Source: Chrysochromulina tobinii (taxonomy: Eukaryota). Taken from it: 54,903 bases of DNA. Location: positions 1 to 54,903 of the forward strand of contig JWZX01003338.1 in assembly GCA_001275005.1 (NCBI GenBank), given 5' to 3'. The notes under the pieces are model-generated. The model did no database searches and was not told the origin of the DNA. It saw only the letters and a list, made by a program, of their open reading frames with translations. The first letter of the stretch is position 1. The number at the start of each line of letters is the position of its first letter. Below, in pieces: positions 1 through 52,059 of this stretch. A program made the position numbers and the translations under genes.

Positions 1-1638
1 GTGGTACTGCTGCTGCTAGCGGTGCGCTCGCTGAACCGGGTCTCGCTGCTCGTGCACGACTCGGGCGCTCGCGTGGATGAGCTCTCGACGGTCACCGTCG
101 CCGACCTCATCGAGTCGGTCATGTCCCCTGGCTCACCTTTCGCCATACCATCGATTGAGGCTCTCGCATCCGTGCCCGAGCTCGCCACGAAAACCGCCAT
201 CCTCGCGTGCCCCTTCCGCTTCGACCGTTTCGCATTGGGCGAGTCGAACGTGAAGCAGCTCGAGACATACTTCCAGCTCAGGGTGAGCGACGGGTCGGTG
301 GCTACCGGTAATGCTACCGAGGCCACGCGTACCCGTGCCGCGCAGCTCCTTCTCGTCTCATGCTTGGGCGAGTTCGCGCCCGAGCTGCAGCGAGCTGTCG
401 CCGCGATCCCGCCCTCGCGCAATAGTTCCGAGGGGGGATCCACGCCCTCCGATTCCAAGCGCACGGCAATCGCCTTCCTGCAGCTTGTTCACAGCGCCGT
501 CGATGCGCTGCAGACGGTGGGCGAAACCAGCGCCCCAAGCCCGTCGCCGCTGCAGGCGAGCTCAGCCCGGAATTCACGCAGCATTGGTGGCGGCATGGAC
601 GGCAGCAGCCATGGACCCGGCGGCAGCCTGGGCGGGAGCGTGGGTGAAGGCGACCTGACCAAGTTAGTAAGCAAGCAGGCGCAAGCCGCAATGAAGCAAT
701 TCCTGCGTGCGGCTGAGGGCAACATACGCAAGGAAATGGAGGAGCTTCCGAGCTCCTTTTCGAACTCTTTATCAGGAAGATTATCACGTACGAATTCAAG
801 GAGCTTCAGTAAGGGAGGTTCAGGATGCTTCTCGCCACTTATGCCGAGTACGAGCCCCACGGCCTCGCTGTCGACGGCCGATTCCTCGCTCAAAGCTGTG
901 AGCGAAGACGTGTCGATGCGCGAGGAGCAGGAGCAGGAGCAGGAGCAGGAGGGTGCGCTCTCGACCGCCTTCGTGCGCCTGTACTGCATGCTGCGGTGGC
1001 GGCCGGGCGCGGCGCGACATCTGCAGCTCGCCATTGAGGGCCTGAGCGACGGCGACTGGGGCATCTTGCAGCGTGAGCTGGCGACCGACGCTGAGGGTTC
1101 TACCTCGGTGCTCCCTGCGCGCCGTTCTCAGTTGGTGCTCCTTGACGCATGCCGCATACTGCAGGCCACTGATGAGTGCTCATCGTCAGCGTTGACGGAG
1201 GAGCTCGGTGTCATCATCGGTACCGAGGCACTACCCTCCGCCACCGCGAACGGCCAGCACGACGAGATGCGCGCCACCGCTCTCCGCGTAGGTCTTGAGT
1301 GCCTCGCACAGCTGCTTCTCGTGGTTCGCTCGTCCGTGTCGGAGGAGGATATGACGGCTGACTTTCCTTACGAAGTCTTTTGCGGCAACGCGCTGCGCGT
1401 GGCGTACACGGAGCGGGCGGCCGCGCTGCGCGAAAAGAGGTCCCTGCGCCCGAAGCCAGATTTGAGCTGTCCGGAAGCTCACGTGAGCTGCGGCGCAGAG
1501 ATGACGCTGCCGACCCAGCTGGAGCTGCTCAAGGCGGCGCGCTTCTGCGTGCTGTGCGCCAATCCGCACTACGCTCACCTGGGTCTCGAACCGCCCACGG
1601 ATCGCTCATCCGACTCCGCACTTGTGCACTGGATTTGA
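1..1638 (+). CDS. 3' part of a hypothetical protein, open from the window edge, with Ser/Gly-rich linkers
   Basis: 545-codon stop-free frame from base 1 to TGA at 1636-1638 with GC3-rich codons; no recognisable motif. Confidence 0.7.
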   Translation: MVLLLLAVRSLNRVSLLVHDSGARVDELSTVTVADLIESVMSPGSPFAIPSIEALASVPELATKTAILACPFRFDRFALGESNVKQLETYFQLRVSDGSVATGNATEATRTRAAQLLLVSCLGEFAPELQRAVAAIPPSRNSSEGGSTPSDSKRTAIAFLQLVHSAVDALQTVGETSAPSPSPLQASSARNSRSIGGGMDGSSHGPGGSLGGSVGEGDLTKLVSKQAQAAMKQFLRAAEGNIRKEMEELPSSFSNSLSGRLSRTNSRSFSKGGSGCFSPLMPSTSPTASLSTADSSLKAVSEDVSMREEQEQEQEQEGALSTAFVRLYCMLRWRPGAARHLQLAIEGLSDGDWGILQRELATDAEGSTSVLPARRSQLVLLDACRILQATDECSSSALTEELGVIIGTEALPSATANGQHDEMRATALRVGLECLAQLLLVVRSSVSEEDMTADFPYEVFCGNALRVAYTERAAALREKRSLRPKPDLSCPEAHVSCGAEMTLPTQLELLKAARFCVLCANPHYAHLGLEPPTDRSSDSALVHWI

Positions 1639-1910: not shown

Positions 1911-2648
1911 TCACCTGCCGTTCGGCGTCACGTGGACCATTGGGTGAGTCTGAAAGTTGTGCGTCGGGTGGCGGAGCTGTCGCGCTCTCTGAAGGATCTC
2001 GGGTTTGCCCTGCTTCAGGTAGACCGCGCCGCAGCAGACCACACACAGGTCAAACAGACCGCCCTGCTCCTCGCGGCACTCGGCGCAATGATAGTAACGA
2101 TTGACCACGTCACCGCAGAGGTCGCATGAGGCTGTGCTGCCTGGCAGCGGATACTCGGCCTCGCCATGAGCCTCCGGCTCCTGTGTCTGCATCATCATCA
2201 TCATCTGTCGTTGCTGTTGCTGTTGCTGCTGTTGCGGTGGCACGCGCATCGGCCCGTTGCCGGTCTCACGGCTCGGCCCGTCTATTCCAGGGGCGAATTT
2301 CGCGTGCTTGCCGCCGAACTCGGGTCGCGCGGGCGGTAACTCGTTACGCGCCTGCCCCTGGTTGTACGCCGCCTGTGTTGCGTCGTACACCGCCTGGCCC
2401 TTGAAGGTGCCCTGCAACTGGTTTGCGTCCCACGCCAAGTGGCCTTGGCCGAGTGCCCCCTTCATCCCGTTGCCGCTCTCGCGCTCGCGGTAAATCTTCG
2501 ATTGGCGCACGACGGGGCGTTCGCCCAGCTTGTTGTCACGCTCTATGCTGCTCGCCGGCGATCCGAAGGTCATGCGGGGCGGCATGTCGTGTTTCTCGAC
2601 GTCAACTCTCTCGGCGAGCCGAAAATTGCTGCCGTCCGTCGACGTCAT
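1911..2648 (-). CDS. Protein with a C-terminal ZZ-type zinc finger and a polyQ/polyM tract
   Basis: First ATG at 2648 (MTSTDGSNF). The C-terminus CDLCGDVVNRYYHCAEC...FDLCVVCC...HPTH...THPM fits the ZZ pattern (CxxC, YxCxxC, FDLCxxC, His ligands). Confidence 0.75.
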   Translation of the reverse strand: MTSTDGSNFRLAERVDVEKHDMPPRMTFGSPASSIERDNKLGERPVVRQSKIYRERESGNGMKGALGQGHLAWDANQLQGTFKGQAVYDATQAAYNQGQARNELPPARPEFGGKHAKFAPGIDGPSRETGNGPMRVPPQQQQQQQQRQMMMMMQTQEPEAHGEAEYPLPGSTASCDLCGDVVNRYYHCAECREEQGGLFDLCVVCCGAVYLKQGKPEILQRARQLRHPTHNFQTHPMVHVTPNGR

Positions 2649-2881: not shown

Positions 2882-5800
2882 ATGGCACCTAAACGGAGCT
2901 CATCGCCAGCTCCATCGAAAAAGAAGGACAACGCCTCTCCCGCGCCTGTGCGTCCGCCCGCCACTGGCAAGGTGCGCAGCCATTCGGCGCCCCGCTTCGC
3001 TGCGGCCGCTCCGCTGAGAGCTGTGTCCGATGGGCCATTGACTCAAGTGGCCTCGCGCCCGTACCGCCGAGCGTGCGCGCGCTCTGACGTGCTCCTCCTC
3101 CCTCCCCCGCGTGCATAGGGCGGCGACAAATCCTCGCGCTCGTCGTCGCCGCTTCCCGAGAAGCCCGACAAGGCCGACAAGAAGAAGTCTTCCGTCGTCG
3201 GGGCAGCGCCCGAGGTGAAGAAAATGAAGTCAGCGGGCTCATCGAACGATCTTGAGGACATGGACGACATGTCGTCGCCGCTGACGCTCGGCGAGGGTGC
3301 GCGCGTGAAGGCATGGGTCAAGATGGCCGCCGGCGCGAGCTCAGGCGTCGATGCCGAGGACGCGATCTGCGTGCGCTCGGAGGTGGCCGAGGGAGGCGCC
3401 GTCGTCGTGTACGCGCTGGACGGCGCCGGCCGCAAGATGCAGACGGCGGTGGTGGATGGCGTGATCTCGGACTCGGAGCCGCTCGCCGCCAAGAACGCCG
3501 ACATGCTCTCCCCGCTCGTCGATAATGTGATGTGCGAGCCTGACCTGAAGATCAGCTGCCTGTTGTGCTACGGCGAAGACGGCACCGGCCTGTCGGAAGC
3601 AATGACGGGCAATCAGAGCCTGGTGACGCAGACGGCGCAAAAGATGCTCGCGCAGACTGCGGGCGCAGGCGCGAACTGCACCGTCTACCTCGGCGTCACC
3701 CTCATCGCCATGGAGCTTCTCTTCGACTTGCTCGAGCCCTCCAGCGGCCGCGAGATGGAGATCACCGAGACGCAGTTCGCCGGCGTCACCATCCACGGCG
3801 GACACTGGCAGTCGCTGAGCTCGGCGGCAGCCGTTGGCCCGCTGCTCGCCAAGGCGAGCGCCAACCGCGAGTCCACGATGGCCTCCCTGGGCGGCGGTCT
3901 TTCGCAGCGCAGCTGCACCGTGTACTCTCTGCGCTGGGGCGCGACCGACGGTTCCGCATATGGAAACTCGATCATCATCGTGGAACTCGCCGCACCGCCA
4001 ATTGTGCGCGCATCGGGCGTTCCCGGCCTCAACCTGGACGACTACTGCTCCATCAACACCTCGCTCAAGACGTTGACCAAGTGCCTCACCGCCATGGGCT
4101 CGAAGAAGAAGGCAGCCACGCCCCCGCTGCGCGACTCGCGCCTCACGCACGCCCTCGGCCTCGTGCTCGGCGACGACACCGCCCTGCTGCACGCGCTGGT
4201 CTTCGTGCCGGCGCGCCGTGGCAAGCGCGCCGAGGCGTGCGCCGCTCTCGGCTGGGCGAGCAAGGCGAGCGCCGCGCGCCTCAAGAAGGAAGTGTACTCG
4301 TCGGCCTCGTCCAAGGCCCTGGTGAGCTCGCTACAAGGCGTGGTGGCCTCCCTCGAGGAGCCTGGGCCCGAGATGGAGTCGGAGATGCGTGACCAGATGA
4401 AGCCGAAGCCGGAGGCGCTCGCGCAGCTCAAGGCGGCCGCCGAGCAGAAGCGCGGGGTCCTCTCGGAGGTCGAGGCCGAGCTCCGAGCGTCGAAGGCCAA
4501 GGTCGACGACGCCAAGGCGCGCAACCAGGCCGCCAAGAGCGAGCGTGTCAAGGAGCAGCAGGAGGTCAAGGACGCCATCCAGGACCTCAAGCAGCAGGAG
4601 GAGGGCGTCCGGAGCGGCAAGGAGCTGCAGAAGGCCATGGACACTCTCAAGAAGAGCATCACCGAGGACAAAGCCGAGATGCGCCGCCAGCTCGAGGAGC
4701 TCGAGCAAAAGGTCACAGATGCCAAGGCCGACCTCGTCGGCATCGGCGCGCAGACCGACAAGCTCGACGATGGCGCGCCGGGCATGTGCGACGCGCTCAT
4801 CGAGAAGGGGCGCATGTACGTCGACGACGGCAAGAACAAGTACGCCTCGCTCATGTTCATGAGCGCGATCAAGCTGATGGAGTCGATCGGCCTCGGGCGC
4901 TCAGCGTTCGTGGTGCCGCCCGTCTCGGCGCTCGCCGACCTGTACTCCGCCGAGGGCATGGATGAGGAGGCGATCGCTCTCTACAAGCAGGCGTACTCGA
5001 TCGAGAAGGACTCGAGTGGCCCCGATGCGCCCGCGCTCGCGCGCCACCTGCAGAAGCTCGGTGCCGCGTATGAGAAGCAGGGCAAGATGGAGGCGGCCAC
5101 GCTCACGCTCGAGGAGGCGGGCTCGGTGCTCGAGCACGCGCACGGCCCCGACCACCCTGAAGTGATCGCGATCCGCGAGCAGCTCGCGTTGCTCATCGAG
5201 CCCGAGGAGGAGGAGGAGGAGGAGCTCGAGGACGACGAGATCGACGTGGAGCCCTCGGGCGACGCACCGCATCATATGGACCGAATGTCGGAGATGCCGA
5301 GCGGCGGCGTGCTCGAGTCGAAACACTCGGACCTCGCCTCGCCGCGCTCGGCGCAGGCCGCGCAGGCGATGGCCGAGGAGGCTGGCAAGAAGGGCGATGC
5401 CAAGAAGCCCGCCAAGGCCGGCGCCAAGCCCAAGAAGGGTGACAAGACCGACAAGGAGGCCAAGGAAGAGGTAACTACCAAGGGCGCGAAGCCCAAGAAG
5501 GGTGCCAAGGGCGACAAGGCTGCCAAGGAGAACAAGGAGGGCGACGCCAAGCCAAAGAAGGGCAAGAAGAGTGCCGCCGCAACCGGCGACGCGGATGGCG
5601 AGGAGGCGGTCGCCATCAGGCCGCAAGGCGCCGTCAAGCAGTCGATCGTTGCGGGCGCTGACGAAGCGACGGTCCAAAAGTTTTCGTCGCAGCGCATGAA
5701 GGAGCGCGTCAAGGCACGGATGAAGCGCGTGAACGAGGAGGAGGAGGGCAGCTCAAAGCAGCTCTCGCTCTCGCTCGGCTTGCCGCCGTCGCTCCCTCCG

Positions 5801-8800
5801 CCTTCGGAGCGCGACAACACGCCGGACAACGCGTCCGACCTTCCGGAGTCTCTCCAGAAGAAGCGCGACCTGTTCCGCGCTCGAATGGCGTCGCACAAGG
5901 CTTCGCAGGAGTCGCGCGAGGCCATCAAGGCGAGCCGCGCCGAGCGCGAGGGCCAATGGCGGCGTCGGCGCGAGGACGAGGACGAGGACGAGGACGACGA
6001 GGAGGAGGAGGAAGAGGAGGAGGGCGAGGAGGAGGAGTTCGGCGAGGAGGATGCAGACGGCTCCGAGCTCACCATGATCGAGTCCGAGCTCTTCGAGATC
6101 ATGGGCTCGGCGAACAAGTCGGCGCAAAAGGAGGACTGGGCGGACGTGCTCGACCAGTCGGCGAAGCTCGAGGGCCACCTGACCCGCGCCAAGGGCAAGG
6201 TGGCCGCGTGCGCGACCGCGGCGCGCGTGCTGCTCAACACAGGCCTTCGCCACTCGAGCGACATTACGGACGAGCCGCGCGTGCGCTCCATCCTCGGATG
6301 CCTGATGATCGTCGAGTGGTGCGTGCCCACGTGCCCCGAGGCCTTCCGCCAGGCCATCGCGTCCGACCGGTGGGTGCGCAAGCTCGTCTCGCTCTGCGGC
6401 AAGGACCAGTCCGATCAACTCCTCGTGCGCACGACGACCATGCAGCTGCTCGCCAACTGGGCGCAGTGGTATGGCTCGCAGCCCGCATGCGCCGGCTTCG
6501 AGAAGGCGCTCGAGATGCTCGAGAACGAGGGGTTCGAGCCGCCGGAGGCCGCGTCGCGCGATTCCGACGAGCTCGAGATGACGGCACGCCAGGCGACCGC
6601 TCGCGAGTTCAACCCGCTCGGCAAGGGCGCGCTCGGCGTGCCTGGCCTGCAGCTCCAGCTCCAGCTGCCCCTCGCAGGCTCGCATCTGGGCTCGCACTTG
6701 GGCAACAACAACTCCAAGATCGCCACGGAACTCGACATTATGCGCGAGGACGTGCGCACGCTCGAAACGGCGCTTGTCAAGCTGGGCGCCAACGGCGAGG
6801 GCAAGCTCAACGCCATCGAGCTCGCGGACGCCGTGCAGGCGGCCACCGATACGCGGGGTTGGCAGTCGCGACTCACCATGCTCCTCGACGAGCTGCCGAC
6901 TGACGGAACCGCCGGCACCCACCGCGGCGAGGTCTTCCCTGAGAAGACGAAGAAGGAGATGCACGCCCTGCTCGAGCAAATCACGGACCTGCTCGCCAAG
7001 TGGTCGATCGCCGCTCCGCGCGAGCGAAGGGGACGCTCGACCATCCAGGGAGCATGGTCGACTCCCTCCGAGGAGGCAGAGCGCAAGGTCGGCAAGAAGC
7101 CGACGGTCGCGGAGATCAAGGCGTCGGGCTCCATCGGCGGCGTGGCGCTGCCCTCGTTGTTCACGCCGCGCGACCTGAACAAGATTGGTCTCACTGCGGC
7201 GGGCCAGCTCAAGGAGGGAGAGAAGCTCGCCACCCCGCGCAACCCGCAATTCTTCGTGAGCAACCCGAAGCTGCTCACCGCGCGCGGCCCACTCCAGGTG
7301 CCTCCGGAGATGGCCGCGCAGCTCTCTTCGCGTGGGGGGCTCAAGCCGCTCGCCTCGCACCGGCAAGCGATGGGCAACGGCGCCGCCGCGACCACCAACC
7401 TCGCGTCCAACCGCAACAAGAGCCGCGTGCCCGGCGGCGACTCGGCGCGCTCGGCGCGCACTGGGTTCGCCACCATGGAGGACCCCCCCGATGCCCGGGA
7501 TGGTCAAGGTGCCCTCCCTCTCGCTGCCCACCGAGCAGCTGCCGCACCTCGACCTCGCCATTGCATCCAACCGCACCAACCGTAACGGCACGAACCGCAC
7601 GGCGCGCCCGGAGACGGCGGCGCCCAGCTCGTTTGGCGACGACGATGACGTCTTCGGCCGCGACATGCACTCGCTCTCATACCTCGACCTCGCGCTGCCT
7701 GGCCGCGGTGGTAAGATGATGTTCGAGGGCGAGCCTGACTTTTTCGCCTCGGGCTTCATGGACGACTCGCTCTTCTACGTGGATCAAGACCCGTCCGCGG
7801 GGCTCGACGCGCAGCTCGCCGAGCTCTCGCTGCTCCTCGGCGGCGATGCGTGGAACGCGCCCCAGTTCCTGCAGGAGATGCTCATGCTCCAGATGCAGGC
7901 CGAGGCGTGGCGCATGCAATGGTCCGTCGCGATGCAGGAGAATGAGGAGCTGCGTACCCAGCTGTACGACACGCGCAACTCGCTCGAGGCCGCGGGCGGC
8001 GGCGGCTCCGGCGGTGAGCACTGGCGCGAGCTGTGCATCTCGATTGCCAAGTCGGCCGAGGACGAGAAGGGCACGATCCTCGAGCAGATCCGCGTGATGC
8101 GCGACGACATCGACGTGGTTGAGATTGTCGATTCGGAGCGCAAGGAGGCCCTCGACGAGCTCATGGAGGCCGCTGAAGAGTCGCGCCGCGCTGCGGATGA
8201 ATGGTCGGCCAAAGCGAACGAGGTGATCAAGAAGCGCAACGAGCTCAACGCGGCGCTCTACCAGGCGGACGCGGCGGCGGCCGACCAGGAGGCTGACGTG
8301 GAGGCGCAGACTCTCTCCCTCGAGGAGCAGGCACGCAAGGCGCAACTGGCCGAGGAGGAGGCGGAGGCGCTCCTGCAGAAGCTCGAGGAGGAGGAGCTTG
8401 CCTTTGAGGCGACGCTGCGCGAGCTCGAAGAGGAGCACAAGGAGGCCGTGCAGAGCCTCGCGGCCGACGCGTCGAACAACGACGACGACGTGCAGCAGGC
8501 GTCCGCTGCGATGAACCAGTGGCGCACGCAGTGGGAGGAGGAGCTGACGGAGAAGAACTCAATCGACGCCGAGCTGCTCACGCTGCGCTCTGAGTTCCAG
8601 AAATCGTCGGCCACGTATGAGCGCGAGATCGAGGGGCTCAAGGAGCTCCTCGGCAAGGAGAAGCAGCTGCGCAAGGAGATGGGCGCGAGCCTCGAGACGG
8701 AGGAGGCGGAGCTCGAGCGGAGCGCGGCGCTGCTCGAGCAGCAGAGGGAGCAGGTCAACTCACAGCAGGAGGGCAAGCTGAGGGAGGCCCAAAAGTCGTC

Positions 8801-10991
8801 CGAGACCGAGGCCCAGTTGAGCGCCATCAAGGCGGAAGAGGAGGCGGCGCGCGCGCGCTGGGAAGAGGCGCTCAAGGCTTCGAAGCTCGCCCAGGGCGAA
8901 GCCGACGCGATTCGCGCCGCCGCGGGCGGCGAGGCGGGCAGTGTGCAAGAGCAGATCGCAAGCTTGCGTGCCCAGCTCGAGGAGGCCATGTCAGAGGCGG
9001 CCAAATACGAGGGCGTGCAGGCCAAGCTCGACGAGACGCTCGCGATGGCACAGTCGCTCAAGGCGGAGGCCGCCGCGCTGCGTGCGCAGACCGATCAGGA
9101 AGCGGCGTCGGCCTCTTCCGAGCACTCGGTTCTGCAGGAAGCGCTCAGCGACGCCAAGTCGGCGGACGTCAAGTGGGCGCAGGAGCAGGCGCTGCAGGTG
9201 ACCGCCAAGGCAAACCTGGTCGATGAGGTGAATGCACTCAAGCGCGAGGCCAAGGAACTCACCGACGCGCACAACACCGAGGTGGAGCGCCTGCGAGATC
9301 GCCTGGGCCAACTGGAGCGCGTGCACGACACGCTCGACGCGACGCTTGCCGAGGAGGAGGCGGCTCATGAACAGGCCGTCAAGGAGAAGAAAGACTCGCA
9401 GGGGGGTGCCCAGGCCTCCAAGGCGGCGGCCATCGCCGAGATCGTCGCGCAGCACGAGGCGGTACGCTCTGAACTAGCCGATGTGCGCACGAAGCTCACG
9501 CAGGAGCAGCGCGAGCGTACGGCGGCAGAGGAGAAGATGAAGGAGGCACGCGAGCAGGCAGAGGCCAAGAGTGGCGACGCCGAGGAGCGCGAGAAGCGGC
9601 TCACGCAGGCGCTCGCGGGGCTTCGCGGCGAGCGCGCGCGCATCGAGAAGGAGGCGTCCGCCGAAAAGGCGCGCTTCGAGCAGCTCATCGCGGGGCTCAC
9701 GGGCGAGAACGAGGAGACGCGACGCAAGCAAAAAGAGGCTGAGGAGCGCGGCGTCGAGTTCGAGAAGCAGTGGGTGAGCGAGTCCAAACTGCGCAAGGAG
9801 CTGCATAACCAGCTCGAGGAGATGGTGGGCAACCTGCGCGTGTACTGCCGTGTGCGTCCCGCCAAGGGCGACGAGAAGGGCTTGCCGATGTCGGTCGAGG
9901 TGAAGGGCTCGGACACTGTCATCGTCACGGACTACGAAGATGACAAGAAGGAGCCGAGGAAGTTTACGTTCACGCAGGTGTACGGCGGCGACTCAAAGCA
10001 GGAGGACGTTTTCAAGGGCTGTGAGTCGCTCATGACTTCGGTGCTCGACGGCTTCAACGTGTGCATCTTCGCTTACGGCCAGTCCGGCACGGGCAAGACC
10101 TTCACGATGAACGGCACCGACGAATTACCGGGCCTCGTGCCGCGGGCGATGTCCAAGATCTTCGATCTCGTGGCTGAGCGCGTGGACAACTACCAGCACG
10201 AGTGCTTCATCTCGATGATAGAGATCTACAACGAGTCAATCCGCGATCTGCTGCGCGACCCGAAGGTGGATGTGTCCAAGCTCAAGTACGACATCATGCG
10301 CGATCAGCTCATGGGCATGTACGTCAAGGACCTCACCTCTGAGCAGTGCCACACCGCCTCGCATGCCAAGAAGCTCATCACACAGGGCGACAAGAATCGC
10401 TCTGTCGCGTCCACCGGGCTGAACGACGTCTCCTCGCGCTCGCACATGGTGGTAACGCTCACCATCCGCACCAAGAACCTCAAGGCAGGCGACACGTACG
10501 TGGGCAAGCTCTCGCTCGTCGACCTCGCAGGCTCCGAGCGTCTCTCCAAGTCGAATACGACCGGCCAGGCGCAAAAAGAGTCGATGGCGATCAACAAGTC
10601 GCTCTCAGCGCTCGGCACCGTGATCGCGTCGCTCGCGACCAACGAGAAGCACGTGCCTTACCGCGACTCGAAGCTCACGTACCTGTTGCAGGACTCGCTC
10701 GGTGGTAACTCGAAGACGCTCATGTTCGTCAACTGCGGCCCGGCGCAGCAGAACTGCGCTGAGACGAAGAACTCCCTCGACTTTGCTTCGCGCGCCAAGA
10801 CGGTAGCCCTCGGTAAGGCGACCAAGAACCGCACCGAGGACGATGAAGGCGGTGCTGGCGACAAGGCGGGCAAGGCGTCCACCGTCATGGCGGCCGCCAC
10901 CAAACTTGGCAGTGACCATGCGGCCGCGCCATCCGCCGAAGCGCCCAAGGCCTCGGCACGCGGCAAGCCGGCCGCCAAGCCGAAAAAGTAA
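2882..10991 (+). CDS. Giant kinesin-14 family protein (~2650 aa reconstructed): degenerate motor, coiled coil, TPR, VHS, GAT, coiled coil, kinesin-14 motor
   Basis: Exon 1 is 2882-2971, followed by a GTGCGC...TAG intron at 2972-3118 (CTGAC branch-like site). Exon 2 from 3119 is in frame with ORF 3215-7585. The frame changes near the C7 run at 7483-7489 into ORF 7332-10991. The C-terminal motor has the neck LRKELHNQLEEMVGNLRVYCRVRP, P-loop GQSGTGKT, SSRSH, DLAGSER and HVPYRDSKLT. Confidence 0.8.
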
Positions 10992-12194
10992 CCACCCGCA
11001 GCAGCAGCAGCAGCTATTATTGCCACTCGCAAGGCGCGGGTGCACGGCGGCATGGGTGCAGGGGCAAGGCAAGCACACGGATGGCAGGCACAGGCGCACT
11101 GAGGCGCTCGGTGCATGCGCGGTGGCAGTGGACGCCCCCGCTGCGAGCAGCGAACAGCAGCGCCTGTATGACCGCGGGGGAGGGACGACAACATCGGTGG
11201 CGCGACGACGCCGGCTGCTCTATGTATGCGCAGGCGACGACGCGCGGGGGCTATCATGGGTGCGCGGGGGGCTACAAACGGGCTACGGGGCGTGTTGGCG
11301 TGCGGAAGCCGGAACTCGAATGTTTCCGATGACAAAAGAAGAGCCACGTGCTCATCGTAGTCGTTTGTGCAGCTCGTCACAGACGAGAAGTGGTCGTGGG
11401 GCGTGGGGGGGTCGCGCCCAGGGTCGGTGCGAGATGTGTGATCGCACGGTGTCGGTGAGTCGTATATTAAAAACGCGATCGCGGAACGGGAATTTACGGG
11501 TCCCGCAACGACCGCACAGGCGCGGACAAGGGACATCGACATGTTTTTGTTTGATTTCGTTCTAACGTTCATTTTTCATTTTATGCATCTTCATGCATCG
11601 GCAGACGCTCCGCACGGCATGGACCGGCAAGCCGGCCGTCGACCGTACGGTACCGTACGACCATGATCGCGGTGCGGATGCCCGGAAGCCCGGGATCATA
11701 ACGCGATTCGTATAACGCGCCGGCGATGCGTGACGAAATTACATAGACAGAGCGCTCTGAGACGAGCGGACAGTGGATACACCTTGCTGGACCTTGCGCT
11801 GGCGCCCGCTGCGCGCTGGCGGACCGACCGTCGGTGGACCGCGCGGCCGCGCGACCACCGCACGCGACCATCGCACGATCACGCCGTGACACGCGCTTTG
11901 ACTTTCACAGCAGGACAGCACACGCACAACTTGTTCCCCCCCGCTACCGGCAGGTGTGTACAGACCACCACTGGCTCTGCTCCCTCCTCGCCCGCGAAAG
12001 GCAACGCACACGATGTTCCACCCTGGGCTTGTTGCTGCCTGCCTGCCTCGCAGGAACCAGATCATGTACTAAGCATGGTCAAAGCATTGTACGAGGGTGG
12101 TAAGGTGGGGGGAGGCAACCGCCCACAGAGACGCACGTTGGTTGCGTCGTGCTGCGTTTGACTCGCCGCTTGCCTCTTCGCGCGCGCGCCCTTC

Positions 12195-49639: not shown

Positions 49640-51654
49640 TCATGGCGGAGCCACGGGCAAAGCCGTTGGCAGAGCCATAGGCAGAGTCGACGGCCCAGGT
49701 GAAGGGATTGGCAGTGCCACGGGCAGCGCGGCGGCCAAGCCTGACATTCCGCCTAGCATGACCTGCTGTCCCGGCGGCAAGCGCATCGCGGGCAGCGCGC
49801 GCTGCCCGCGCTGCGTGATGAATCGCTGGAGCTCGTCGACGTTATCGTGCGCGGTTCGCCCCTGTGCGGCTTCGGAGATGATCTCGAAGGCCCACTCGCC
49901 CGTGCCTGATGAGCGAGGCCATCAGAGGGCTATTAGAGGGCAATCAGAGGGCAATCAGAGGACATCAGAGGCAATTAGAGGGCTATTAGAGGGCAATCAG
50001 AGGGCCATCAGAGGCAATCAGAGGCAATCAGAGGGCTATTAGAGGGCAATCAGAGGGCAATCAGAGGCAATCAGAGGCACGGCTCGCTCGCCCTGTACGT
50101 ACCCGCGTCGCGGTAGAGCATGCCCACAACCATCGCGGTGTGCTTGTCGAGAAAGGAGCAGTTGTGGATTTCGAACTTTGCGAGGTCGCGGCAGCTGCCG
50201 GTGTCGTACAGGTGGCACGAGGCGCCCTTGACGTCATCAAGCTCCTGGCCGCTGTACGAGTTGATCACGAAGCCAATGTACGCGACCGCCGGGTGCACCT
50301 TGGCAAGGTTCAGGAAGATCTTCTCGTCGTCGCCCTTTTCGTCGCCCTCGCGCTCGTCGCCGCCGTGCCGAACCGAACCGTCTGAGGAGCTCAGCTTATT
50401 AAAGAAGACGAGGTCGACTTGGCGTAGGTTGGCGTCGAGAAGCAGCGCAGAGGCGTCGAGGTCGATGTTGACGCCATTCGTCACGTCCCATGCGAGGCCG
50501 AGGCCTAGGGTAGGGGGCAGCTGCCCTTCTGGCACGTAGTCGCGTACACGGATCACGCCGCCCTTGCGCATGATCGCGACACGGTCCGCCAGGTTGACCT
50601 TGATCCCAGGCACGAGGTCCTTCGAGTACATTTGAATCTCGGGCGCGAGGGTGCCCCAGTCACGCGCCGTGTGGTCGTACTCGCCGATGGCCTGCAGGGT
50701 CCATGGCGTGCTGGCCGACACGCGCGCGATCCGACCGAGGAAGCAGGCCGTGTGCATGCCGCCCGTGCCAGGGTAGAAGCGGCACTTTTCAACGCCGGTC
50801 TGCATATCAATCAGGCGCATGCGCGCGCTCTTGACGTCTGCAAAGGACTTGCCCTCGGTCGCAACCGTGCCTACAAGGTAGAGCGCGCACACGCTCGGCG
50901 GCACGCGCTCGAGCTGGATGTGGATCATCTCGTCATCGCCTTCGCCCAGGTCTGCGTCGCCTTCACGTTCGTCGCCAGAGTGCCGCACGGCACCGGAGGC
51001 TGAGTGAAGCTGTGCGAAGTAGACGCTCTCGGACATGTTGATCTTGCCGTCGAAGCCGAGTGCGACACACGCTGTGTCCAGATCGATGGCCGCCTCCGTG
51101 AGCGAGCGCTTGCCCGCGAGCGGCTCCCAGCCGAGGCCGACTGCGAGCATGCCGCTCGGACCGAGCTTCGTGGTGTCCTTAGGCTGCAGCGAGACCGCGC
51201 GGCGCAGGAGCGCCACGATCTTGATCTTGAGCTCCCCCGTCGCGTTACTGCACCCTTTGCATTTCTGTACGGGAAAATACCCCTCGCGCTCCTTGCCTTT
51301 GATCAGCTCTCGCAGCGGGATGTGCACCTCACCCATCGGGTCGTCGCTACCTTCGAGGATGCCCTTGTCCGAGTCGAAAATGCTGAAGACAATCGGCAGG
51401 TCGGGTTGGTACTGCTTTCCGACCAGCACGGACTTGAAGCCGTGGTCGTACGTGGGTGCCAGCGTCTTGTCTTTCACCTCGGTCTTTGTCAGCTTCTGGC
51501 CGCCAAAGGAGACGACAACGTACGGGTCGGAAGTCTTCTTGGCGCCCATACTGAGCATACCGGTGCCATCCTTGGCGACTAGGTTGCGGCCAGAGATAAT
51601 CGTGCAGTCGATCTCGCAACCAAGCACGTCGTCGTCCTCGCGACGAGCCGCCAT
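49640..51654 (-). CDS. C2 domain plus two TerD domains (605 aa, two exons) with a Pro-rich tail
   Basis: C2: IISGRNLVAKD, SDPYVVV, KTLAPTY, FDSD. TerD motifs GLGWE/GLAWD, DLD and VRH.GDEREGD...DDE.I occur twice. Intron GTACGT...CAG 50102-49906 joins exon 2 GEWAFEIISEAAQGRTAHDNVDELQ. Confidence 0.9.
49915..50078. repeat. Intronic minisatellite of 10-11-nt units (AGAGG(G)CAATC / AGAGGGCTATT)
   Basis: About 15 degenerate tandem units fill most of the 197-nt intron. Confidence 0.92.
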
Positions 51655-52059
51655 CGGGTGAGCAAAACCCTCGCTCGGAAGGTTCGCGGACCCTAAATCG
51701 CGGCTGTGAATGTGGGAGTTTCAAGAAACAATTGGTTGTGATGCGACCCCGTACCGAGCAACTTACGGTAAAAAGAACCTCGAAATTCCGCAAGGGCACT
51801 TCCCGAGCGCTTCAGCCTGGCGCATGGACCAAGAGGATCCGCCATCTCGATTCTCGTGCCAGGTGGGTGCGGGTGGCCTGGCTCCTGGCTACCGTACGCC
51901 CGCCCCACAATTATGTAGCGTGTGATGTGGGAGTGAAGGTGTGAAGTCTGCAGACAGTAGACGATGGGAGTTTGATGGAGGGAGAAGACTCGGACGTGAT
52001 GGAGTCATCACGGCGCACGACGACAGGTGTATGCAATTGGGTGTATGCATGGAACGAAA

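Follow-up and report, generated by a model that had tools for sequence, protein, structure and literature searches.

TbKIFC1/LmjF19.0260 of the trypanosomatids (about 840 aa in Leishmania) carries a VHS domain, a coiled coil and a C-terminal kinesin-14B motor in one chain. In the report on TbKIFC1, the VHS domain is described to bind anionic, cholesterol-containing membranes, and the motor to move endosomal membranes via this domain (PMC7479354). In yeast, Kar3-Vik1 and Kar3-Cik1 join an active kinesin-14 head to a partner of kinesin fold but without ATPase elements; PMC4338441 states that these dead heads bind microtubules and confer processivity. The adaptors TOM1, TOL and GGA have a VHS domain with a helix-2 Trp followed by a GAT bundle, and TOM1 couples to the minus-end motor myosin VI. 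In plants, a lineage without cytoplasmic dynein, minus-end transport is performed by the kinesin-14 KCBP, which has a second cytoskeleton-binding site in its tail. Kinesin-1 distributes a head, a coiled coil and TPRs over a heavy and a light chain, and the cargo-binding TPR domain of the light chain is made up of six repeats. For the Haptophyceae, the cytoplasmic dynein DHC1 and dynactin have been reported to be absent, in reports that rest on few haptophyte genomes. No motor for minus-end or haptonemal transport in haptophytes was identified in the literature searched.

The gene described here (2882-10991, forward strand) lies in a 54,903-nt stretch of DNA from Chrysochromulina tobinii, contig JWZX01003338.1 of assembly GCA_001275005.1 (hereafter, the window), and shares features with each of these systems. 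As in TbKIFC1, VHS domain, coiled coil and C-terminal motor share a chain; however, the surveys list only VHS-KISc for the trypanosomatid proteins, without GAT, TPR or a second kinesin domain. As in Kar3-Vik1, an active head is accompanied by a dead one, but the latter belongs to the same chain and sits at its opposite end rather than beside the motor on a separate chain. The VHS-GAT module is placed in the middle of a kinesin, is very divergent from TOM1, TOL and GGA (13-16% identity in structural matches) and has no DxxLL-type motif in its linker. The tail of KCBP is a MyTH4-FERM tail, whereas here its place is taken by pseudo-motor, TPRs and VHS-GAT. Finally, the N-terminal half repeats the order of kinesin-1 heavy and light chain, but does so in one chain; its head is degenerate in the catalytic motifs, and it has three TPRs instead of six.

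In the window as deposited, the gene appears as two open reading frames, 3119-7585 and 7491-10991, the split being caused by a surplus base in the run of Cs at 7483-7489. In the four sequencing runs compared at the locus (X1, X2 and X8, RNA; X11, DNA), the surplus C was absent at full depth without exception. Codon preference changes frame at about 7480, and all three RNA runs gave a contig across the junction (6040-7882, 6299-7882 and 6319-8071) rather than transcripts ending near 7585 with a separate start near 7491. Moreover, the translations of the window are identical to the 2653-aa protein P0079 of C. parva at 30/30, 1454/1454 and 1166/1166 residues. This confirms that the two reading frames are one gene for one protein, and the single polypeptide of 2653 aa proposed in the first-pass annotation was correct. 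The idea of two separate genes or of an assembly chimera could draw on the two ORFs, on the public model KOO21738.1 that spans only 948 aa, on the many database matches that are half-length fragments, and on the lack of an RNA contig covering the entire gene in any of the three RNA runs; it is largely refuted by the absence of the surplus base from every run, by the RNA contigs that traverse the junction, and by single full-length ORFs in this species group, in a paralog and in other clusters. The RNA contigs are interrupted at an acidic repeat (5958-6039) and at several further sites, part of which lie in sequence that the paralog matches as well. Steps in RNA depth at 7853 and 9815 were considered as internal starts and rejected: they differ among the runs, contig depth cannot reveal such starts, and the break at 7853 falls in sequence shared with the paralog. 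Our work also corrects a public gene model that was left partial by the region of a one-base assembly error. The features of the gene are listed in Table 1.

Table 1. Features of the gene, in positions of the window.
Feature	Positions	Strand	Details and evidence
Exon 1	2882..2971	+	30 codons; N-terminus rich in Ser/Pro/Lys; 30/30 identity with P0079 and P0072
GT..AG intron, 147 nt	2972..3118	+	joined in 3/3 RNA runs; unjoined in the DNA run
Kinesin-fold pseudo-motor (predicted)	3290..4285	+	without P-loop Lys and switch II; microtubule face (L11-a4, L12-a5) kept; Pfam, PDB, motif alignment
Coiled coil 1 (predicted)	4286..4765	+	inferred from composition; weak CCDC93_CC match
Three kinesin-light-chain-type TPRs	4766..5200	+	KLC1 E 4e-23; TPR_12 E 7.4e-10; 77-86% identity among close homologs
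Low-complexity linker, acidic / Lys-rich / acidic	5201..6064	+	short conserved motifs; sequence, charge counts, conservation profile
VHS domain	6065..6547	+	helix-2 Trp aligned to TOM1-family ubiquitin-site Trp; structure match, Foldseek, alignments
GAT-like three-helix bundle (probable)	6710..7021	+	model helices 219-244, 254-279, 297-320; Tom1 GAT best match
C run with one surplus base	7483..7489	+	assembly error; base missing in 4/4 runs and in L001
Stalk start, highly conserved	7830..8099	+	92% column identity at aa 1601-1650
Coiled-coil stalk (predicted)	7887..9827	+	length 647 aa in 11/11 close homologs, 651 aa in the divergent locus L005
Intact C-terminal kinesin-14 motor	9828..10810	+	GN neck, RVRP, P-loop, switch I, II; Pfam E 9.3e-108; PDB ranking
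Short basic tail at the C-terminus, then stop codon	10811..10991	+	ORF; alignment to P0079

Pfam found the domains other than the GAT-like bundle in the order first proposed, and the domain order is repeated in several other full-length proteins, in an expressed paralog (P0092) and, completely, in the divergent locus L005. The homologs are not always encoded as two unlinked genes, as single-ORF full-length homologs exist. Among the long matches, two kinesin stretches and the TPRs were present in five out of five, and the VHS domain in three by Pfam and in all five by BLAST. A word search with the VHS-GAT region yielded no homologs of at least 2605 aa; the same search with the stalk region yielded five long proteins. 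The tree did not resolve the branching order among the close homologs. Judged from these comparisons, we are dealing with a single protein that is conserved among haptophytes.

Its sequence identifies the C-terminal motor as an intact kinesin-14, complete as originally claimed: it occupies aa 2267-2594 behind the stalk, and the GN neck and all nucleotide motifs are present. In a comparison with the PDB that provides a score ranking only, KCBP (277 bits) and KIFC3 (266 bits) came before Kar3 and Ncd (about 240 bits) and KIFC1 (210 bits). KIFC3 and TbKIFC1 are classed as 14B, and the haptophyte motor likely belongs to the same subclass. Its family and its neck predict that it is minus-end-directed.

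The N-terminal head is a kinesin by profile (Pfam Kinesin, E 1.9e-21) and in comparison with the PDB (kinesins, E 6.6e-10), but it lacks the motifs that define an active kinesin (P-loop GxxxxGKT/S, switch I SSRSH, switch II DLAGSE). It is very improbable that this head is a divergent but active ATPase, in a protein with two working motors: the fold is recognisable over the full length, the P-loop glycines are retained and four of the six homologs have an Arg in place of the P-loop Lys, but the Lys itself is absent from all six, the Gly and Glu of switch II are replaced in all of them, switch I is variable, and RxRP remains in only one. As the first-pass annotation had recognised, the head is degenerate, and the face that contacts microtubules in other kinesins has been kept: identity is 71% in L11-a4 and 74% in L12-a5 as compared to 46% for the whole domain, and there is an extra basic patch. 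Conservation also reaches 72% in the degenerate switch II region, so that tubulin binding need not be the only reason for keeping this face. By sequence and profile the head resembles Vik1 and Cik1 in being a kinesin fold without ATPase elements; however, it scores better against N-type kinesins, as the profile of the N-terminal half gave 84.5 bits for N. crassa kinesin-1 and 60-68 bits for the protein family's own C-terminal motors.

The TPR block follows the head at a spacing of 239-240 aa in seven of seven proteins. Its top matches are KLC1 and KLC2, and it consists of 42-residue repeats of the light-chain type located behind a coiled coil. Thus, the proposed likeness to kinesin light chains holds for the type of the repeats but not for their number and arrangement, with three repeats fused to the motor instead of six in a separate chain. 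The Asn ladder known from light-chain TPRs is missing in an alignment inspected by eye. TPRs and stalk start are the most conserved parts outside the motor, with 85-92% of columns conserved. A complex prediction for TPRs, linker and stalk start, performed without alignments, gave no answer (score 0.02). The stalk start has a Trp-rich likeness to P0046, an unrelated VHS protein, but this was discarded because 91 of 200 shuffled sequences reached an equal score.

In the case of the VHS-GAT module, the first part of the proposal is firm and the second only probable. The VHS domain is internal (aa 1013-1173) and not the N-terminus of a motor-less adaptor. Pfam gives it an E of 5.3e-6 at 26.8 bits, below the cut-off of 29.8; with the kinesin match of the head, the N-terminal half is therefore not devoid of profile matches. 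An alignment-based model of VHS-GAT (pLDDT 80), which replaced a poor single-sequence model (pLDDT 48), contains an eight-helix superhelix whose five best matches are all VHS domains (VIA Z 17.0 to the Hrs VHS, then 16.5, 16.1, 14.4 and 14.3; CID 13.4), and on this model the VHS fold is secure. Foldseek with the VHS-GAT model returned nothing at E 0.001 or better, and its top rows were all VHS. The helix-2 Trp is conserved in 46 of the 48 rows of the alignment and aligns with the Trp of TOM1-like proteins; in TOM1, this residue (W30) is critical for ubiquitin binding, as stated in PMC13386808. The bundle behind the VHS domain is probably a GAT: the model matches the Tom1 GAT best (Z 10.6, rmsd 2.8, 93/95 aligned), tied with CNOT3/Not5 (10.3) and close to the GGA1 GAT (9.9); helical bundles can attain such Z values by chance. 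The bundle has no Pfam match, and its profile found no GAT among the PDB sequences. An HMM of the GAT region gave only 2.6-4.9 bits on three TOM1-like proteins, yet exceeded all 200 shuffles in each of them. The Asn-Asp pair known from helix 3 of the TOM1 GAT is missing by eye, and motif scans (SxIP, clathrin-box, DxxLL, AP2) revealed nothing persuasive. That VHS-GAT would bind cargo through ubiquitin is a tentative assignment, less likely than not; otherwise, the module may bind anionic lipid or sorting motifs. Lipid binding is a rival to ubiquitin binding because of the membrane binding of the TbKIFC1 VHS, even though the basic cholesterol motif in helix 7 of TbKIFC1 is missing here by eye.

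We propose that the protein is a kinesin-14 that acts as a minus-end motor for membrane cargo, a reading to which we give about an even chance. The C-terminal motor would move towards microtubule minus ends, the VHS domain and the probable GAT would grip endosomal membranes, and the N-terminal head would serve as a passive microtubule anchor. The chains probably dimerise through the stalk, and the TPRs may bind a specific partner. Kinesin-14 is normally non-processive, and the anchor could prevent it from leaving its track or keep the cargo between two microtubules. The foothold mechanism of Kar3-Vik1 is not directly transferable, since the dead head is more than 1800 residues away from the motor here but adjacent to it in yeast. 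The protein may take over part of the work of cytoplasmic dynein. It is tempting to go further: the fusion of a dead kinesin head of heavy-chain type and TPRs of light-chain type with a receptor for ubiquitinated cargo like TOM1 and a kinesin-14B motor might replace the dynein-dynactin-adaptor system throughout the haptophytes, with direct choice of cargo and the protein's own second head as track anchor, and might carry prey or membranes along the haptonema towards microtubule minus ends. This extended proposal is speculative and, on the whole, rather unlikely.

Two other functions have to be weighed against membrane transport. With a microtubule-type domain at either end and a stalk of nearly invariant length, the protein could be a fixed-length cross-linker or slider, in which the dead heads hold one microtubule, the motors pull another, and the array is linked to a membrane through the TPRs and VHS-GAT, for instance in the haptonema, the flagellar roots or the spindle. 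Kinesin-14s are known to slide and cross-link microtubules, and PMC6398456 mentions both links between haptonemal microtubules and the transport of food by the haptonema; the same paper states, however, that a motor-like structure has never been observed there. Long coiled coils tolerate few indels anyway, and the fixed stalk length is equally compatible with a structural spacer and a transporter. Moreover, the motor ranks with KCBP and KIFC3 and not with Ncd, Kar3 or KIFC1, and VHS-GAT and the precedent of TbKIFC1 point to endomembrane traffic, so that we regard the cross-linker as possible but unlikely. The dead head and the TPRs might also form a regulatory or partner-binding module, for fold-back autoinhibition or as a dock for another motor, leaving only the C-terminal head in contact with microtubules. 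The strong conservation of TPRs and stalk start and the similarity of the N-terminal half to the head of a kinesin heavy chain with a light chain behind it, including its preference for N. crassa kinesin-1, would suit such a module. It is nevertheless an improbable one, as the conservation of the N-terminal head is centred on L11-a4-L12-a5 and the basic patch, the surface with which kinesins bind tubulin.

The first-pass annotation had considered the architecture as not known from characterised kinesins. This stands for the whole, for which we found no describing paper in a search of the open-access literature that included 12 of the 20 supplements of PMC1434745, but not for the fusion of VHS and kinesin-14B, which has already been tested in trypanosomes with TbKIFC1. 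A chain with an active kinesin head at one end and a dead one at the other was not found in a kinesin survey of 45 genomes, none of them from a haptophyte, nor in the papers searched. For parts of the architecture there are precedents in TbKIFC1, Kar3-Vik1 and TOM1-myosin VI. The occurrence of VHS-kinesin-14B fusions in both trypanosomes and haptophytes raises the question of an ancient origin or convergence. If our proposal is true, the protein shows how anchoring and the choice of cargo can both be made part of a single motor. As a conserved and expressed protein, it is a concrete candidate for minus-end or haptonemal transport in haptophytes, and one that can be tested part by part.

The kinesin feature is real, expressed and conserved. 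Two long ORFs lie on the forward strand of the window (3119-7585 and 7260/7491-10991), and codon preference places a switch of frame near 7480. The first-pass annotation had joined them into one polypeptide, and this assignment holds: The base at 7483 is absent at full depth (60.5/60.5, 24.8/24.8, 24/24 and 43.3/43.3) in all four runs used (three of RNA and one of DNA, from 20 listed), RNA contigs cross this junction in all three RNA runs, and P0079, a protein of 2653 aa from Chrysochromulina parva, is identical at every residue compared (30/30 in exon 1, 1454/1454 and 1166/1166 for the window pieces). The base is likewise missing in the homologous locus L001, a single ORF of 2623 codons. The intron 2972-3118 is joined in 3/3 RNA runs and not in the DNA run. 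None of the contigs from the three RNA runs covers the entire gene, and across the acidic repeat 5958-6039, where the contigs break, continuity is given only by the genomic ORF and the uninterrupted ORFs of homologs. The public C. tobinii model KOO21738.1 comprises the first 948 aa only. A second surplus base, at 11405 and 3' of the stop codon, is absent from all four runs and is another assembly error.

The predicted domain order was found again in homologs. A search for long proteins (7982 candidates scored) gave five matches of 2329-2594 aa, one of which, P0063, belongs to the window's own species group: All five contain two kinesin stretches and TPRs, and the VHS domain was detected by Pfam in three and the VHS and GAT-like regions by BLAST in all five. 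Locus L002 is a single ORF of 2594 codons, and the divergent locus L005 has every part in order at 36-61% identity, with two introns seen. The same order is present in the C. tobinii paralog P0092 (2561 aa; L003:4793-13008), whose depth in the DNA run is similar and whose 179-nt intron is spliced in 2/3 RNA runs; since the stalk lengths are identical, heterodimers with the window protein are conceivable. P0005 (head 29% identical) and the Chrysotila dentata fragment P0006 extend the N-terminal half to distant lineages. All family members with an organism name are haptophyte except P0059 (C-terminal half), labelled Planctomycetaceae bacterium and probably a misbinned haptophyte contig; the family is likely haptophyte-wide.

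The C-terminal kinesin-14 motor is complete, as annotated: no catalytic motif is missing, and the GN neck is present. Among PDB entries KCBP and KIFC3 score above Kar3, Ncd and KIFC1, which suggests subfamily 14B (classes from the PMC2867816 supplement). The stalk measures 647 aa in 11/11 close homologs, which represent about eight distinct sequences; in L005 it has 651 aa. Coiled coil rises 0.15 nm per residue, and the stalk would span about 95 nm if it were continuous coiled coil; the heptad signal is modest and Gly-rich breaks are present. The stalk start (7830-8099) is nearly invariant across homologs and gives weak scores (4.6-8.5 bits) against helix 7 of the VHS domain in two TOM1-like proteins. 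The light-chain nature of the TPRs is borne out by three 42-residue repeats that match KLC1 (E 4e-23) and are 77-86% identical among close homologs. Kinesin light chain TPRs carry an Asn ladder, which is not retained in the alignment of the window repeats.

Of the proposed VHS-GAT module, the VHS part stands and the GAT part is probable, with a structural match but no profile match. For a structure model of 6053-7033 (36-row alignment, mean pLDDT 80), the top five VIA-align rows are VHS domains, led by Hrs (Z 17.0, rmsd 2.6, 147 residues aligned). The Tom1 GAT ranks first for residues 218-326 (Z 10.6, rmsd 2.8, 93/95 aligned), tied with CNOT3/Not5 (10.3) and followed by the GGA1 GAT (9.9). This region has no Pfam match and no GAT match among PDB sequences; a profile of the region itself scores 2.6-4.9 bits on three TOM1-like proteins, weak values that exceed all 200 shuffles of each, and in a large HMMER search two TOM1-like proteins match across VHS and GAT. 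Sequence support for the GAT is thus weak. The helix-2 Trp of the VHS domain is present in 46/48 aligned rows, both exceptions being an unrelated VHS protein, and aligns with the TOM1-family Trp called critical for ubiquitin binding in a review (PMC13386808). Ubiquitin binding is putative, as a lone Trp does not suffice to establish it. In P0024 of Prymnesium polylepis a VHS domain of the haptophyte type occurs in another context, followed by a stretch that by eye recalls the VPS13 C-terminus and has no Pfam match.

The N-terminal head matches Pfam Kinesin (E 1.9e-21). The motif count covers the six homologs whose head is complete and excludes three N-truncated models as well as the L005 head, which is split by an intron. 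The P-loop Lys is missing from all six, with Arg instead in four, switch II has become an LA(A/S)PP-type stretch in 6/6, switch I is variable, and RxRP is retained in one. Pairwise identity is 71% in L11-a4, 74% in L12-a5 and 64% in a6 vs 46% for the whole domain; the altered switch II also reaches 72%. Such a pattern would be expected for a non-catalytic head retained for its microtubule face, and we consider an active second motor quite improbable. Because the N-half profile ranks Neurospora crassa kinesin-1 (84.5 bits), OSM-3 (79) and kinesin-5 (75) above the family's own C-terminal motors (60-68), a heavy-chain/light-chain origin appears more likely than duplication of the C-terminal head, with small margins.

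We infer that the protein is most likely, at about even confidence, a dimeric motor that would move toward minus ends and hold membrane cargo on the central VHS-GAT, with the dead head as its anchor. A cross-linker or slider of fixed length, attached to a membrane, would fit the constant stalk; this reading has a smaller though appreciable chance and is compatible with the cargo motor. That the N-terminal half is a regulatory module is rather unlikely, and two separate genes, as the ORFs of the assembly would have it, deserve next to no credence given the missing base. For context, published reports based on few genomes find neither DHC1 nor dynactin in Haptophyceae (PMC3583065, PMC5100056), the accessible part of PMC12338079 holds nothing further on dynein-1 in haptophytes, and moss reportedly uses KCBP for such minus-end transport (PMC5461021).

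Other features in the window
Feature	Position	Strand	Domain search
Upstream gene, end of a large protein	1-1638	+	cNMP-binding, AAA_16-type NTPase
Head-to-head neighbour	1914-2645	-	no Pfam match
Long high-GC3 ORF, 571 codons	17712-19424	+	no Pfam match
Long high-GC3 ORF, 862 codons	28635-31220	-	no Pfam match
Long high-GC3 ORF, 1579 codons	34587-39323	+	no Pfam match
C2 and TerD protein	50074-51720	-	C2, two TerD

The head-to-head neighbour lies about 240 bp from the kinesin start, combines a Gln run with a Cys-rich CxxC cluster that looks ZZ-type zinc finger-like by eye, is overlapped by RNA contigs (1525-2606), and has no counterpart beside the other homolog loci examined. The upstream gene is extended in L001:1-5571.

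The annotation knew of no characterised kinesin with this architecture; as far as the open literature was searched, this holds for the whole and not for the VHS-kinesin-14B part. VHS-KISc is the published architecture of LmjF19.0260 and TbKIFC1 (PMC1434745, PMC2867816), and both features are shared by the window protein; in TbKIFC1 the VHS domain binds membranes that are anionic and contain cholesterol, and endosomal transport requires it (PMC7479354). The dead heads Vik1 and Cik1 are separate chains (PMC4338441), whereas here the dead head lies within the same chain. The 45-genome kinesin survey (PMC2867816) includes no haptophyte; its 14 'KISc-KISc' entries, which either are kinesin-related tails or carry that label in 1-2 of 3 architecture columns, contain no kinesin-14. 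In the open literature, mostly represented by abstract openings, we found no account of the protein or its architecture. A role in the haptonema, which transports food and where a motor-like structure has never been seen according to PMC6398456, is speculation. Among kinesin-14s, the architecture of this protein is a new variant: No precedent was found for the whole, but its single parts have tested ones.
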